Positions 16,280 to 33,922 of a DNA stretch of 64,000 nt are shown piece by piece. The translations under genes and the position numbers were made by a program. Source of the DNA: an uncultured Gemmatimonadales bacterium (lineage in GTDB: Bacteria > Gemmatimonadota > Gemmatimonadetes > Gemmatimonadales > GWC2-71-9); NCBI GenBank assembly GCA_963828735.1, contig CAWHFW010000005.1, positions 256,001-320,000 of the forward strand, read 5' to 3'. The notes under the pieces are model-generated. The model worked only from the letters and a program-made list of their open reading frames with translations. It made no database searches and had not been told where the DNA came from. Positions within the stretch are counted from its first letter, which is position 1. Every line of letters begins with the position of its first letter.

Positions 16280-16481
16280 AACACCTCCGTTGGAACCCAG
16301 TGGAACCCACGGCCCTGTAAAGCTTAACGCATCCGTCGAGGGGGGGTGAGTGCAATTTTGGGGATGGGTGAAGCGGTGGTGGCTTCAGGCATATTATGCA
16401 GTCATTGTGGCCCAATTCTCGTCTACTGCGGTCAGGTTTGCACCTATGAACAGCATTTTGTGCAATGTGTGCACGATTCTC

Positions 16482-16510
16482 TTGACATGAAAAGTGCCGG
16501 TTCGTATACT
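16482..16510 (+). promoter_or_regulatory. Sigma70-type promoter for glnA
   Basis: TTGACA(16482-16487)-17 nt-TATACT(16505-16510). Confidence 0.8.
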
Positions 16511-16516
16511 CCGCTA

Positions 16517-16703
16517 GTCGAGATGCCGGACCCTGTACCCGGAGCCACGATGCGCCAGTCCTTCCGAAATCCGTCGCCGCGCCATCGCGAACCGCCCGGG
16601 CCCCCGTCCCGCTGCCCCGCAGCGTCCCCGATGCCCCTGCGTTCGCGATGCGACGCAGGGGCATCTCACTGAGATCCACCTCCACCACCAGCGCGAGACC
16701 GCC
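16517..16703 (+). promoter_or_regulatory. Structured 5' leader of glnA
   Basis: 16-bp hairpin at 16630-16665; competing perfect helices 16520-16527:16660-16667 and 16583-16592:16641-16650. Confidence 0.5.
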
Positions 16704-18170
<1,467 letters not shown>

Positions 18171-28821: not shown

Positions 28822-28858
28822 AAACGAAAAACGCCGCGGACCTCTGGGTCCGCGGCGC
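28822..28858 (-). terminator. Attenuator terminator upstream of leuA
   Basis: Minus strand CGCCGCGGACC-CAGA-GGTCCGCGGCG followed by TTTTTCGTTT. Confidence 0.88.
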
Positions 28859-28885
28859 CGGTGCATTCGGTGGAGACTTACTGTC

Positions 28886-28987
28886 TCACGTTGCTCGTGT
28901 CGGCACGCCGCGGACCCCTGGCTCACCAATAAGGACGGTAAGCAGGAGGCCAATAAGGACGACGACGAGCACGAGATTGAGCAGCAT
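28886..28987 (-). CDS. ilv-leu leader peptide MLLNLVLVVVLIGLLLTVLIGEPGVRGVPTRAT
   Basis: 33 codons with 9 Leu, 7 Val and 2 Ile, using CTT/ATT codons; contains a 12-nt antiterminator complementary to the terminator 5' arm. Confidence 0.88.
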   Translation of the reverse strand: MLLNLVLVVVLIGLLLTVLIGEPGVRGVPTRAT

Positions 28988-29086: not shown

Positions 29087-29115
29087 TTGACACATGCATC
29101 GTGGTGCATAATAAT
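29087..29115 (+). promoter_or_regulatory. Sigma70-type promoter for gltB with a palindromic spacer
   Basis: TTGACA(29087-29092)-17 nt-AATAAT; spacer contains ATGCA-N6-TGCAT. Confidence 0.65.
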
Positions 29116-29122
29116 ACGGTAC

Positions 29123-29191
29123 ATGAACGCCACGCGCCTCCCGGTCGCCGCCCGCATCAATCTCGCTACCCCTCGGGGAGCGACCGGGTAA
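29123..29191 (+). CDS. Candidate leaderless leader peptide MNATRLPVAARINLATPRGATG upstream of gltB
   Basis: ATG sits 7 nt after the -10 box (the expected start site); the ORF spans segments 1 and 2 of a mutually exclusive helix set. Confidence 0.5.
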   Translation: MNATRLPVAARINLATPRGATG

Positions 29192-29217
29192 GCGAGCGTT
29201 CTCGCGCAGGAACCCCG

Positions 29218-29249
29218 GCCCGCTCCCAGATCGGAGCGGGCTTTTGCTT
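29218..29249 (+). terminator. Intrinsic terminator inside the gltB 5' leader
   Basis: GCCCGCTCC-CAGATC-GGAGCGGGC-TTTTGCTT, about 50 nt before the gltB ATG. Confidence 0.75.
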
Positions 29250-29299
29250 GCCCTGGATCGGTCTCTCCGGCCGCCGGGCTCACCATCGCAGGAGGCACC

Positions 29300-32200
29300 A
29301 TGGCCGCCCCTGGGCAGCGGATCCACCCGGCCGGTTCCCACTCGCTGGACCCCCGACATCGCGCGGCGCCCCCCGATCGGGCCCTCGATCCCGCGCGGGA
29401 GCACGACGCCTGCGGCGTCGGCTTCGTCGCGCACGCGTCGGGCGCGCGATCGCACGAGGTGGTGCGGATGGCGCTCGAGGCAGTGGCACGCGTCGCGCAC
29501 CGCGGCGCCGCCTCGACCGACAACTCGGGTGACGGCGCGGGACTGCTCACCCAGATTCCGCATCGGCTGTTTTATCGCGACGCCTACCGCCTCGGCCTGC
29601 ACTTGCAGCCGGGCCTGCCGTTCGGCGTCGGCGCCTTCTTCCTGCCGCGCGAGCCCCACGCGCTCGGCGAGTCCGTGGCCATGGTGGAGGCCGTGCTTGC
29701 CGAGGACGGGATCCCGTTCCTGGGCTGGCGCGACGTGCCCACCCACCAGGCGGCGCTCGGCCCCACGGCGCTCGCGTCGTGCCCGGTGATCCGGCAGGTG
29801 CTCGTGGGTCGGCCCGCGCTCGCGGCGGACGAGGAGCAGTGGGAGCAGTCGCTCTACCTCGCGCGACGAGAGATGGAGCGACGCGCGGAGGAGCGACGGC
29901 TCCCCGACTTCTACGTCTGCAGTCTCTCCTGCCGCACCATCGTCTACAAAGCCCTGCTCACCGGGACCCAGCTCCCCGCCTTCTTCACCGATTTCCGGTA
30001 TCCGGAGTACGAAAGCGCGATCGCCGTCTTTCACCAGCGGTACTCCACCAACACGCTGCCGAGCTGGCCGCTGGCGCAGCCGTTCCGGCTGCTGGCGCAC
30101 AACGGCGAGATCAACACGCTCTGGGGCAACCGGAACGCCATGACGATGCGCCAGCCGATGCTGGCCTCGCCGGTGTGGGGCCGGAAGATCGAGCGCCTGC
30201 GTCAGGTGATCTGGCGGGAGGGCAGCGACTCGGCCAGCCTGGACAACGCGATGGAGCTGCTGGTGCGCTCGGGCCGCGACGTCGTGCACACGTCGATGAT
30301 GATGGTGCCGCAGGCCTGGGAGAAGTATCCGGACGTGGACCCGGCGGTGAAGGCGTTCTACGAGTACCACCAGTGCGTGCTCGAGCCGTGGGACGGCCCC
30401 GCGGCCATCGCCTTCACCGACGGCGTGCGATGCGGCGCGTCGGTCGACCGGAATGGACTCCGGCCCTCGCGCTACAAGGTCCGGCGCGACGGCCTCGTCG
30501 TGTCGGGCTCCGAGGTCGGGCTGGTGGACCTGGATCCCCGCGAGGTGGTCGAGTGCGGGAAGGTGGGTCCGGGCGAGGTCCTGGTGGTGGACACGGGGCG
30601 AGGCGAGGTCATCCGGAACCTCGACGCGAAGCGCGAGGTGGCCGGCCGCCGGCCGTACGCCCGCTGGGTCGCGCGCTACATGGCGACGCTGGTCCCGGAT
30701 CCGGCGCGCGTGCCGCCGGTTCACACGGGGACGCGGCTCGCCCACTCGCAGCGGACGTTCGGGTACGGGTTCGAGGATCTCCGGCTGGTGCTGGAGCCGA
30801 TGGGCGGCACGGGCGCCGATCCCGTGTGGAGCATGGGCGACGACACGCCGATCCCCCCGCTCTCGGCGGTGCCCCAGAGCCTGTACGCGTACTTCCGACA
30901 GCGCTTCGCGCAGGTCACCAACCCCCCGATCGACTCGCTGCGCGAATCGATGGTCATGTCGCTCCGCATGCACCTGGGCCGGCGTGGCTCGCCGCTGCTC
31001 GAGCGGCCGAGCTATGCGCGCATGCTGCGCCTCGAGCATCCGGTGCTGCTCCCCGAGGAGATGGCCGCGCTGCGGAACGTCGCGGGGTTCTCGACCGTCA
31101 CGCTCGACGCCGTGTGGGACCCGACGCGCGGGGTGGACGGGCTCCGCCCCGCCCTCACGGCGCTCCGCCGCGGTGCCGAGCGCGCCGCCCGCCGCGGGGC
31201 GCACATCCTCGTGATCAGCGATCGCGCCGCGGACGCGACGCACGCGCCGATTCCGATGCTGCTCGCCGTCGGCGCCGTCCGCCAGCATTTGGTGCACACC
31301 GGTCTTCGGGCACGGGTAGGACTCGTGGCCGAGGCGGGCGACGCGTTCGACATCCACCACTTCGCCACGCTGATCGGCTACGGCGCGGAGGCGGTGCACC
31401 CGTGGCTGGCGCTCGAGACCCTGGAAGGCCTGTTCGCCGAAGCGCGGGAGCCGTCGCGGCGCGAGCGGGACGGCGATGCGGCGCCCCGCCCGACGCCCGC
31501 AGAGGCACGCGGGCAATTCCGCGCGGCGGCCGAGAAGGGCCTGCTCAAGATCCTGTCGAAGATGGGCATCTCCACCCTCAGCTCCTACTGCGGCGCTCAG
31601 ATCTTCGAAGCGCTCGGGCTCGGCCAGGAAGTGATCGGCGCATGCTTCGCGGGCACCGCCTCGCCACTCGGCGGCATCGGCTTCGAGGAGATCGCCGAAG
31701 ACGTCCTGGCGCGCCATCGCGCGGCCTACCCGCCCGCCCAGGCTGCCGACGACGAGGTCTCCCTTCCGGACCACGGGCGCGTCCGGTTCCGGAAGGACGG
31801 CGAGGATCATGGCTGGGCACCGCCGGTCGTGGTGGCGCTCCAGCAGGCGGTAAAGTCCGGCGGCTCCGACGCGTACGGCGGATTCCTCGTCAAGCACGGG
31901 AGCCGGCGGCCGGCGGGACCGCGCGATCTCCTGACGATGCGCGCCGGGACACCGGTGCCGCTCGAGGAGGTCGAGAGCGCCGAAGCGATCCGCACGCGGT
32001 TCGTGTCGTCGGCCATGTCGCTCGGGGCGCTCTCGCCGGAGGCGCACGCCACCTTGTCCATCGCGATGAACCGCATGGGCGCACGCTCGAACTCGGGCGA
32101 GGGCGGCGAGGATCCGCACAGCTATCACGGATTCGCCAACGGCGACCGGGCGGACAACCGGATCAAGCAGGTGGCGAGCGCCCGGTTCGGCGTCACCACC

Positions 32201-33922
32201 GAGTATCTCGCCCGCGCGGAGGAGCTGGAGATCAAGATCGTCCAGGGCGCGAAGCCGGGCGAAGGCGGACAGCTCCCGGCGCACAAGGTCACCGATCTGA
32301 TCGCCCGCCTCCGGCACTCCGTGCCCGGCGTGTCGCTCATCTCGCCGCCGCCCCATCACGACATCTATTCAATCGAGGACCTGGCGCAGCTGATCCACGA
32401 TCTCAAGACGGTGAATCCGCGCGCGCGGGTGGGCGTCAAGCTGGTCGCCGAGACCGGCGTCGGGACCGTCGCGGCGGGCGTGGCGAAGGCGTACGCCGAC
32501 TACGTCCTCATCGCCGGACACAACGGCGGCACGGGCGCCTCCCCGCTGTCATCCATCAAGCACGCGGGCTCGCCGTGGGAGCTCGGGCTCGCGGAGGCGC
32601 AGGCGACCCTCGTCCGCAACGGGCTTCGGCACCGCATCGAGGTGCGGACAGACGGCGGGCTCAAGGCCGGACGTGATGTGGTGATCGCGGCGCTGCTCGG
32701 CGCGGAGTCCTACGGATTCGGAACGGCCCCGCTTGTCGCGATGGGCTGCGCGATGGCGCGCCAATGCCACGTCAACACGTGTCCGACCGGCATCGCCACA
32801 CAACGGGAGGATCTGCGGGCCAAGTTCAAGGGCACCCCCGAGCAGGTGATCCGGTACTTCACGCTCCTGGCCGAGGATGTCCGGCAGATTCTCGCCGGCA
32901 TGGGCTTCCGCACGCTCGACGAGATCATCGGCCGCTCGGACCTGCTGCAGCGGATCGAGCGACCGGACGTGCCGCGCGCGCAGATGCTGGACCTTTCGGT
33001 CCTGCTCGCGCCCCCGGCCAGCGCCGGCCCCACCCGGCGCACCGAGGCGCGGAACGATCGGCCGGGGGTCGTGTCCCTCGATACGGAGGTCCTCGCCGAT
33101 CTCGAGCCGTACCTCGAGAGCGGACTGCCCTTCTCGGGAGCGTATCCGATCCACAACCATCATCTGACCGTGGGCGCGCGAGTGGCCGGCGCCATCGCCG
33201 AGCGCAACGGCGACGCGGGCCTTCCCCCCGGGGCGGTCCGCCTTCGGTTCACCGGGAGCGCAGGTCAGAGCTTCGGTGCGTTCACCTGTCGGGGCATGCA
33301 CCTCGAGCTCGAAGGCGAAGCGAACGACTACGTGGGCAAGGGACTGAGCGGTGGCGAGCTGGTCATCCGGCCCTTCCGCCGGGCCGCGTACGCCGATGCG
33401 TCGCACCAGCACCTGATCATCGGCAATACGATCCTCTACGGCGCCACCGCCGGGAAGCTGTTCGCCGCCGGCCAAGCGGGCGATCGCTTCGCGGTGCGCA
33501 ACTCCGGCGCGATCGCGGTGATCGAAGGCGCCGGCAACCACTGCTGCGAGTACATGACGGCCGGCATCGTGGTCGTGCTCGGCCGGGCGGGGCGGAACTT
33601 CGGGGCCGGAATGTCGAACGGCGTGGCGTACGTCGTGGACGAGGCGGGCACCTTCGGGACCCGCGTCAACCAGGACATGGTGGAGGTCGCGGAGCTCGAC
33701 GACACCGATAGCCTGGTCCTTCAACGTCTCATCCGCGAGCACGAGGAGAAGACCGCGAGTCCGCGCGCACGCCGCATCCTGGTCCACTGGGATCAGTTCC
33801 TGCCCGTGTTCAGGAAGGTGGTCGCCCGGAATTCGGCCCAGCTCGTGGCCGCGGCACGGGACGCGTATCTCCAATCCGTTTCGAGCGAGTTGGAGGTGGT
33901 GCTGGAGCGGCGAAGCGCGTAA
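29300..33922 (+). CDS. gltB: Glutamate synthase large subunit
   Basis: Propeptide then DACGVGF, HQRYSTNT, SNSGEGGE, GAKPGEGGQLP, CAMARQCHVNTC [3Fe-4S] motif; GGAGG ribosome-binding site. Confidence 0.97.
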   Translation: MAAPGQRIHPAGSHSLDPRHRAAPPDRALDPAREHDACGVGFVAHASGARSHEVVRMALEAVARVAHRGAASTDNSGDGAGLLTQIPHRLFYRDAYRLGLHLQPGLPFGVGAFFLPREPHALGESVAMVEAVLAEDGIPFLGWRDVPTHQAALGPTALASCPVIRQVLVGRPALAADEEQWEQSLYLARREMERRAEERRLPDFYVCSLSCRTIVYKALLTGTQLPAFFTDFRYPEYESAIAVFHQRYSTNTLPSWPLAQPFRLLAHNGEINTLWGNRNAMTMRQPMLASPVWGRKIERLRQVIWREGSDSASLDNAMELLVRSGRDVVHTSMMMVPQAWEKYPDVDPAVKAFYEYHQCVLEPWDGPAAIAFTDGVRCGASVDRNGLRPSRYKVRRDGLVVSGSEVGLVDLDPREVVECGKVGPGEVLVVDTGRGEVIRNLDAKREVAGRRPYARWVARYMATLVPDPARVPPVHTGTRLAHSQRTFGYGFEDLRLVLEPMGGTGADPVWSMGDDTPIPPLSAVPQSLYAYFRQRFAQVTNPPIDSLRESMVMSLRMHLGRRGSPLLERPSYARMLRLEHPVLLPEEMAALRNVAGFSTVTLDAVWDPTRGVDGLRPALTALRRGAERAARRGAHILVISDRAADATHAPIPMLLAVGAVRQHLVHTGLRARVGLVAEAGDAFDIHHFATLIGYGAEAVHPWLALETLEGLFAEAREPSRRERDGDAAPRPTPAEARGQFRAAAEKGLLKILSKMGISTLSSYCGAQIFEALGLGQEVIGACFAGTASPLGGIGFEEIAEDVLARHRAAYPPAQAADDEVSLPDHGRVRFRKDGEDHGWAPPVVVALQQAVKSGGSDAYGGFLVKHGSRRPAGPRDLLTMRAGTPVPLEEVESAEAIRTRFVSSAMSLGALSPEAHATLSIAMNRMGARSNSGEGGEDPHSYHGFANGDRADNRIKQVASARFGVTTEYLARAEELEIKIVQGAKPGEGGQLPAHKVTDLIARLRHSVPGVSLISPPPHHDIYSIEDLAQLIHDLKTVNPRARVGVKLVAETGVGTVAAGVAKAYADYVLIAGHNGGTGASPLSSIKHAGSPWELGLAEAQATLVRNGLRHRIEVRTDGGLKAGRDVVIAALLGAESYGFGTAPLVAMGCAMARQCHVNTCPTGIATQREDLRAKFKGTPEQVIRYFTLLAEDVRQILAGMGFRTLDEIIGRSDLLQRIERPDVPRAQMLDLSVLLAPPASAGPTRRTEARNDRPGVVSLDTEVLADLEPYLESGLPFSGAYPIHNHHLTVGARVAGAIAERNGDAGLPPGAVRLRFTGSAGQSFGAFTCRGMHLELEGEANDYVGKGLSGGELVIRPFRRAAYADASHQHLIIGNTILYGATAGKLFAAGQAGDRFAVRNSGAIAVIEGAGNHCCEYMTAGIVVVLGRAGRNFGAGMSNGVAYVVDEAGTFGTRVNQDMVEVAELDDTDSLVLQRLIREHEEKTASPRARRILVHWDQFLPVFRKVVARNSAQLVAAARDAYLQSVSSELEVVLERRSA

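Follow-up and report, generated by a model that had tools for sequence, protein, structure and literature searches.

A conserved candidate attenuator with asparagine-led control codons upstream of glutamate synthase in Gemmatimonadales

The glutamate synthase gene gltB in the 64,000-nucleotide stretch of an uncultured Gemmatimonadales genome analysed here (hereafter, the window) is preceded by a short upstream open reading frame (uORF) and by the elements of an RNA switch, namely an antiterminator (segments 2:3) and an intrinsic terminator (segments 3:4) that share segment 3 and are mutually exclusive. We are highly confident that this leader is a real and conserved attenuator. It probably works as a classical ribosome-dependent transcription attenuator, led by asparagine (Asn) codons, that senses amino-nitrogen by proxy. 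In the mechanism proposed, a ribosome initiating on the uORF and reaching its stop codon would cover segment 2, upon which the terminator would form and gltB be switched off; a ribosome waiting at an upstream control codon would leave segment 2 free to pair with segment 3, giving read-through into gltB. Control would be exerted by codons for Asn, in most cases AAT, a rare wobble codon, and by codons for Ile, Leu and Val (ATT, CTT), and never by those for Glu. The leader would then read the charged tRNAs of amino acids that draw their nitrogen from glutamate or glutamine, not that of the product itself, and Asn-tRNA would stand as a proxy for amino-nitrogen supply. Since Glu-tRNA is a poor reporter of the large glutamate pools, such proxy sensing would be favoured. 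From the leaders and their predicted folds we infer translation of the uORF in vivo, ribosome stalling, the direction of regulation and the link between nitrogen shortage and low Asn-tRNA.

Results

The gltB locus and the parts of its leader

The features of the locus are collected in Table 1. Identification of the downstream gene as glutamate synthase, proposed in a first-pass annotation made from the sequence alone, was borne out by a match of its product to NCBIfam PRK11750 at 1668 bits (cut-off 1047), and the nearest relatives of this GltB, at 77-90% identity, come from Gemmatimonadales genomes. No gltD scored over the cut-off anywhere in the genome (97.5% complete); the electron donor of the solitary GltB is possibly a ferredoxin. 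The leuA and ilv genes lie on the opposite strand, divergent from gltB, with a leader of their own in front which is not part of the gltB switch. That leader, whose 33 codons are rich in Leu, Val and Ile and which is kept in the genus, resembles a classical ILV-type attenuator.

The sigma-70-type promoter of the gltB leader matches 11 of the 12 box positions (0.0 expected in shuffles), and both of its boxes precede the uORF throughout the genus alignment. Its spacer holds a partly palindromic element, ATGCA...TGCAT (29098-29109), that is conserved in the genus and may be a regulator site. As the first-pass annotation had proposed, an ATG at the predicted start of transcription opens the uORF, 7 nt past the -10 box; the distance is 5-7 nt in the 23 leaders parsed, and all but one of the 108 distinct leaders have a uORF of 20-28 codons. 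The window peptide has neither Glu nor Gln codons, again as noted at first pass. Twelve RNA runs, small shares of which were available as assembled contigs, provided two relevant contigs, neither of which gives a transcript start, end or level: one, from a relative (104 differences over ~660 nt), begins ~11 nt before 29141 and crosses the terminator into gltB, and the other ends a few bases past 29244, yet covers the promoter as well.

Table 1 Features of the gltB leader and adjoining elements (window coordinates)
Feature	Position	Strand	Remarks
leuA leader, Leu/Ile/Val uORF and terminator	28830..28987 (uORF 28886-28987; terminator 28830-28859)	-	Internal control
Sigma-70-type promoter, TTGACA, 17 nt, AATAAT	29087..29115	+	-10 box at 29110-15
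uORF, 22 codons, probably leaderless	29123..29191	+	Peptide MNATRLPVAARINLATPRGATG, then stop
Segment 1, anti-antiterminator arm, lineage-specific	29140..29148	+	Pairs with 29180-88
Control-codon region V-A-A-R-I-N-L-A	29144..29167	+	Asn13 (AAT) at 29159-29161
Segment 2, antiterminator 5' arm	29176..29188	+	Stops directly 5' of the stop codon
Segment 3, common to antiterminator and terminator	29214..29227	+	
Intrinsic terminator hairpin (3:4) and U tract	29217..29245	+	Hairpin 29217-29242, 10 pairs
Shine-Dalgarno AGGAGG of gltB	29290..29295	+	Read from the sequence; conserved in genus alignment
gltB, glutamate synthase large subunit	29300..33922	+	No gltD after gltB

The leader is conserved and its helices covary

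The region is recovered by DNA search in 33 of the 36 members of the genus, which offer little variation for testing covariation. Of the 25 gltB loci with a 5' end elsewhere in the family, 21, spread over many genera, were recognised by an RNA model derived from 32 close leaders (L139, L142, L145 and L147 were missed; L131 was assessed through its twin L033), the GltB N-terminus having been found in 26 of 81 family genomes. The pattern of segments 2 and 3 occurred at 80 loci of the GTDB collection, 76 of them in Gemmatimonadota or a subgroup thereof. The remaining four, all actinobacterial (L152, L192, L199, L225), were set aside as chance matches, no stop codon or terminator being present in the three that were viewed; also discarded were weak model matches inside coding or unrelated DNA (L254, L294, L296, L299, L301). 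L292 proved to be another gltB leader and L293 a duplicate of L332, and L298 was left out. Altogether, uORF and switch could be parsed at 134 of 144 loci (not at L137, L139, L142, L145, L152, L189, L192, L199, L213 and L225), yielding 108 distinct leaders after one duplicate from an unpublished genome was dropped; the unpublished genomes G003, G246 and G128 were counted in tallies only.

Covariation in related leaders, which the first-pass annotation had named as a check, was assessed in 39 leaders picked for breadth. Pairing reached 91% in the antiterminator, where 6 of 12 pairs changed on both sides (1 of 500 shuffles as good), and 96% in the terminator, where 5 of 10 did (0 of 500), under a shuffle control that ignores kinship. 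Both helices thus covary, and the uORF is conserved with them. Conservation of the peptide, a companion check, extends to an L-N-L core, the rest being poorly conserved.

Outside the phylum, none of 77 gltB loci (L034-L110) carried this scaffold; five had a terminator-like hairpin and one was unparsed. Nor did any of 13 loci from other families of the class (L237-L249) give a full-length model match. Among these 13, a terminator with an upstream short frame was seen by eye at L237, L239, L240, L241 and L243, their homology being uncertain, and none at L238 and L244-L249 (L242 was unparsed). The uORF at L237 (G393), read by hand, is Ala/Thr-rich and ~66 codons long, stands before a related terminator of gltB, and may represent a variant in the control residue. 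At L146 and L193, the gltB leader precedes a divergent GltB (at L146, 42% identical to that of the window over the N-terminal 200 aa), which suggests from the sequences that the gene may have been replaced behind a retained leader.

Predicted folding places the control codons where a switch would need them

The whole leader of the window folds with a minimum free energy (MFE) of -64.3 kcal/mol (z -3.68; 0 of 200 shuffles as good), in a structure containing the 3:4 helix and a 1:2 helix between 29140-48 and 29180-88. The 1:2 pairing that the first-pass annotation had described is thus present in the MFE structure of the window, but it does not seem to extend through the family: the segment 1 motif CCGGTY occurs in 12 of 32 leaders (hand count), the long helix forms in the window and L028, many genus members have a short hairpin closing over segment 2, and L018 adopts the antiterminator as its MFE structure even without a ribosome, 1:2 not being dominant. 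The 1:2 helix appears lineage-specific, not family-wide.

Ribosomes were mimicked by removing 5' sequence, and the RNA was ended before the 3' arm of the terminator; folding covered six leaders, four by 5' truncation plus L348 and L295. In the window, the 2:3 antiterminator folded when the RNA was exposed from positions 29144 through 29177, was reduced to its short inner part when exposed from 29183, and was absent from the whole 3'-shortened RNA and from RNA beginning at 29138 or 29201. The alternative pairing of segment 2 with 29214-27, as first read, is therefore available once the 5' part is removed, and the terminator predicted to overlap segment 3 is likewise present, with a U-rich tail. 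In silico, the control codons are placed such that a stalled ribosome frees segment 2 and a ribosome at the stop codon covers it. On full-length RNA, the terminator formed in all five truncations, i.e. at every ribosome position tested, so that the gltB switch must be kinetic, a property of known attenuators.

Asn leads the control codons of gltB leaders

The interval from 33 to 12 nt before segment 2 comprised 843 codons in the 108 leaders, which were compared with the 1625 long ORFs of the genome. Asn accounted for 13.9% of these codons against 2.1% of the background, a 6.7-fold enrichment which, as with the other ratios given here, is overstated, the leaders being related and the interval having been set after viewing the alignment, and which shows a direction, not a P value. 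Ile (2.5-fold), Leu (2.3-fold) and Val (2.25-fold) were enriched as well; Ala was at 1.08-fold, Arg at 0.15-fold and Gln at 0.12-fold (3 of 843), and Glu did not occur (0 of 843; 3 of 1955 overall). Of the Ala, Asn or Arg charging considered at first pass as the signal, Asn is thus favoured and the other two are not, and the enrichment in Ile, Leu and Val was not among the candidates then listed. With Glu absent, the control codons do not specify the end product.

At the codon level, AAT was enriched 34-fold, ATT 20-fold and CTT 18-fold, and each was confined largely to the reading frame of the uORF (116 in frame vs 7 off frame for AAT, 73 vs 3 for ATT and 98 vs 8 for CTT). None of the three has an exact-match tRNA in the genome, and they must therefore be read by wobble. 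The common Asn codon AAC likewise appeared at control positions (74 in frame). At least one Asn was present in the interval in 86 of the 108 leaders and none in 22. The best-conserved control position of the family, 18 nt before segment 2, carries Asn in 62 of 108 leaders and Ile, the residue of some lineages at this key position, in 14; it corresponds to Asn13 of the window peptide, the single Asn of its control region. At the same loci, the leuA leaders consist mainly of Leu, Val and Ile (over 50% I/L/V) and have few Asn, which argues that Asn is not a generic feature of leader composition. Most gltB leaders read segment 2 in frame 0 and about a fifth in another frame, three frames in total, with the frame differing between genera; the C-terminus of the uORF is thus fixed by RNA pairing, not by the peptide.

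Charging and supply of Asn in the genome

The genome encodes an AsnRS (over cut-off in 55 of 61 genomes), and its AspRS carries Leu, a mark of discriminating enzymes, at the position of His in the Pseudomonas Asp/Asn enzyme. From these two sequences, the genome looks to charge Asn directly, which weakens a reading in which Asn-tRNA made by GatCAB would be a direct glutamine sensor. Two AsnB-family genes scored over the cut-off and no match to AsnA was found in the genome, so that the supply of Asn plausibly depends on glutamine (and aspartate); the AsnB-family copies are numerous, and they may not make free Asn. As GatB is present and GlnRS was not found in the genome, Gln codons would be a direct reporter of glutamine, and they are depleted in gltB leaders despite this expected role. 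Two copies of gatB lie ~46 kb apart (G000:C2:40718-42119 and 87214-88629), one of them split in two pieces; the pair may reflect a duplication or an assembly artefact (contamination 5.17%).

The same scaffold precedes other genes

The RNA model found a second site in the same genome, before a gene for a Gcw_chp outer-membrane protein, where a promoter (TTGACG-16-TACATT) is followed by a leaderless uORF encoding MRPTCNSNRNRAANYYAFT, the same CCCGGCCCGCTC scaffold and a U tract; the leader lies at about 1407370-1407590 of G000:C5. A pattern search of the genome returned only these two good sites and one lacking a proper hairpin tail, with 2 control matches. Of 30 homologous Gcw_chp loci, 22 were picked and aligned; uORF and terminator are kept at 21 of them, L330 having lost both, and by hand count these leaders hold 71 Asn among ~384 non-start codons, with at least two in each of the 21. 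In 20 of 21 cases, their 3' end reads A/V/G-F-T-stop (TAG), with synonymous variation (L253:1460-1471 and relatives), an ending that the Asn model does not explain.

In relatives, the scaffold precedes genes for an activator with GAF and sigma-54 domains, whose best NCBIfam match is NifA at 526.7 bits against a cut-off of 528.85. A uORF and hairpin were present in 8 of the 10 upstream regions of NifA-like genes that were read, with Asn in all eight (1, 1, 3, 4, 3, 1, 3 and 4 by hand translation; at least three in five leaders and a single one in three); neither this genome's own NifA-like gene nor L347 has such a leader upstream, and L349 was left out. When a Gcw_chp leader and a NifA-like leader were subjected to a folding walk, both gave the expected on/off pattern; in the Gcw_chp leader, the antiterminator folded with RNA exposed from the last third of the uORF and not from past its stop. 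The scaffold was also seen once each before genes for a BBP2 barrel, for a HAD phosphatase and, in a different genus, for a Gcw_chp protein, with 3, 2 and 4 Asn, respectively. The HAD-family phosphatase has its Asn leader in one genus (L300, G070:C115), and a similar HAD-family protein is encoded convergently to a NifA-like gene in another (L368:2119-3315, minus strand). Two barrel genes abut putrescine-aminotransferase-like genes, a neighbourhood hint only; co-transcription of the polyamine and HAD genes with the barrel or NifA-like genes was ruled out, the genes being convergent on opposite strands.

The paralogous leaders are Asn-rich and poor in Ile, Leu and Val, and Asn is the sole residue enriched across gltB, Gcw_chp and NifA-like leaders. 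Asn-enriched short ORFs thus stand at several unlinked loci (gltB, Gcw_chp, NifA-like, BBP2, HAD). In the stretches read, such a leader was absent before amtB, both glnA and two asnB-family genes of the genome; with the genome's own NifA-like gene also lacking it, the regulon is partial. Some of the targets are nitrogen-linked; any role of the Gcw_chp, BBP2, HAD and NifA-like genes in nitrogen metabolism would be putative. Asn-tRNA would be the likely shared signal of all target classes, to which the gltB leader would add Ile, Leu and Val. Taken together, and tentatively, as a proposal whose chances we place slightly short of even, part of the nitrogen-starvation response of Gemmatimonadales might run through an Asn-codon 'ribulon', in which one mobile scaffold jointly serves glutamate synthase, uptake barrels of the outer membrane and a sigma-54 activator of NifA type, stalling acts as a nitrogen gauge and the activator relays the signal to other genes.

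Discussion

Four other readings of the gltB leader were weighed. It could be an attenuator for branched-chain amino acids, co-regulated with the divergent ilv-leu operon, in which Asn is incidental. The enrichment of Ile, Leu and Val (with CTT and ATT markedly enriched), the 22 leaders without Asn in the control interval, the single base that separates AAT from ATT and the adjoining leuA-ilv genes all speak for this reading, but the most enriched residue is Asn, and it is so as AAT and AAC alike, the true ILV leaders next door carry little of it, and the paralogous leaders on the same scaffold are Asn-rich and I/L/V-poor; we regard it as unlikely. Rather less probable still is a sensor of general translation speed, in which slow wobble codons of any amino acid would time the ribosome. 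The 18- to 34-fold enrichment of three rare codons, each ending in U, would fit such a sensor, as would the distant leaders L033, L237 and L239, rich in Lys, Thr or Ala instead. Common AAC codons, however, sit beside AAT at control positions, rare codons for Glu, Gly, Phe, Tyr and Ser are not enriched, and whole classes of amino acids are excluded from the leaders.

The first-pass annotation had also entertained a ligand-dependent arrest of the nascent peptide and a riboswitch, both of which are now disfavoured. For an arrest of the TnaC type, which we consider very improbable, one may cite the A-F-T-stop ending of the Gcw_chp leaders and an N-x-F/W-R-stop ending in three NifA-like leaders, each with synonymous variation. 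Against it, segment 2 is read in three frames that differ between genera, gltB leaders have no conserved C-terminal peptide and little conservation outside the L-N-L core, and a ribosome arrested at the stop codon would sit over segment 2 and promote termination. Least credible, and hardly to be expected, is a riboswitch or protein-binding leader with an accidental uORF: across 108 leaders the frame is open, its start and stop are conserved and the codon bias is in frame, conserved bases lie within the two switch helices with none aptamer-like outside them, and no Rfam family reached its gathering score at 12 loci, the best match in the window being Thr_leader at 19 bits (gathering 55). Asn-led attenuation by a translating ribosome is the reading that we consider probable.

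No Rfam family came near its gathering score between 27500 and 30500 or on 12 related loci, and a search of open-access literature yielded no account of a leader-peptide attenuator for Asn or gltB; within this scope, the earlier statement that none of this kind is known for gltB stands. Leader-peptide attenuators usually count their own end product. Classical examples are those of trp, his, thr, leu and ilvGMEDA and Listeria Rli60, and in thr and ilv leaders several amino acids are read by one leader, as they would be in that of gltB. The nitrogen status of bacteria is usually read as glutamine and 2-oxoglutarate via PII, NtrBC, GlnR/TnrA and glutamine riboswitches. Asn-specific T-box leaders of Firmicutes read the charging of Asn-tRNA and control genes for Asn supply; unlike them, the gltB leader has no T-box or specifier structure by Rfam, and its codons would be read by the ribosome.

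The mechanism of leader-peptide attenuation is stated in PMC5864092. With classical attenuators the gltB leader shares a uORF overlapping the antiterminator, a stop codon at segment 2 and an intrinsic terminator, whereas its Asn-led control codons are not those of the product, its target is nitrogen assimilation and its sequence is unrelated. Leaderless polycysteine sORF attenuators at several unlinked mycobacterial loci are described as a Cys 'ribulon' in 10.1101/834739. The present system resembles it, from sequence alone, in having short, often leaderless ORFs enriched in one amino acid at unlinked loci, and departs from it in the amino acid (Asn, not Cys), in using intrinsic termination where the Cys ribulon uses Shine-Dalgarno occlusion, in having one terminator scaffold common to the loci and in including a transcription activator among its targets. 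The glnA-family glutamine riboswitches and the gltD motif of Negativicutes, presented in PMC8632094 as aptamers or candidates without a uORF, likewise place glutamate synthase genes under cis-acting RNA control, but the gltB leader has a uORF, no Rfam match and a different phylum as its home. If true, the counting of Asn (with Ile, Leu and Val) before glutamate synthase would bring proxy logic and a newly sensed amino acid. A scaffold common to unlinked genes, among them one for a transcription activator, would in turn carry the ribulon idea over to the control of nitrogen in a soil phylum that is abundant and little studied.

Other nitrogen genes are found in the surroundings of the gltB leader. 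The amtB-glnK pair lies 11-16 kb away in 5 of 12 genomes checked, which is a neighbourhood hint only, and glnA is located ~11 kb upstream of gltB within the window. The latter gene is preceded by a strong promoter of sigma-70 type and by a long 5' region (L304:926-1147, window about 16480-16705), in which a GC-rich hairpin without a U tract accompanies a possible 45-codon frame.
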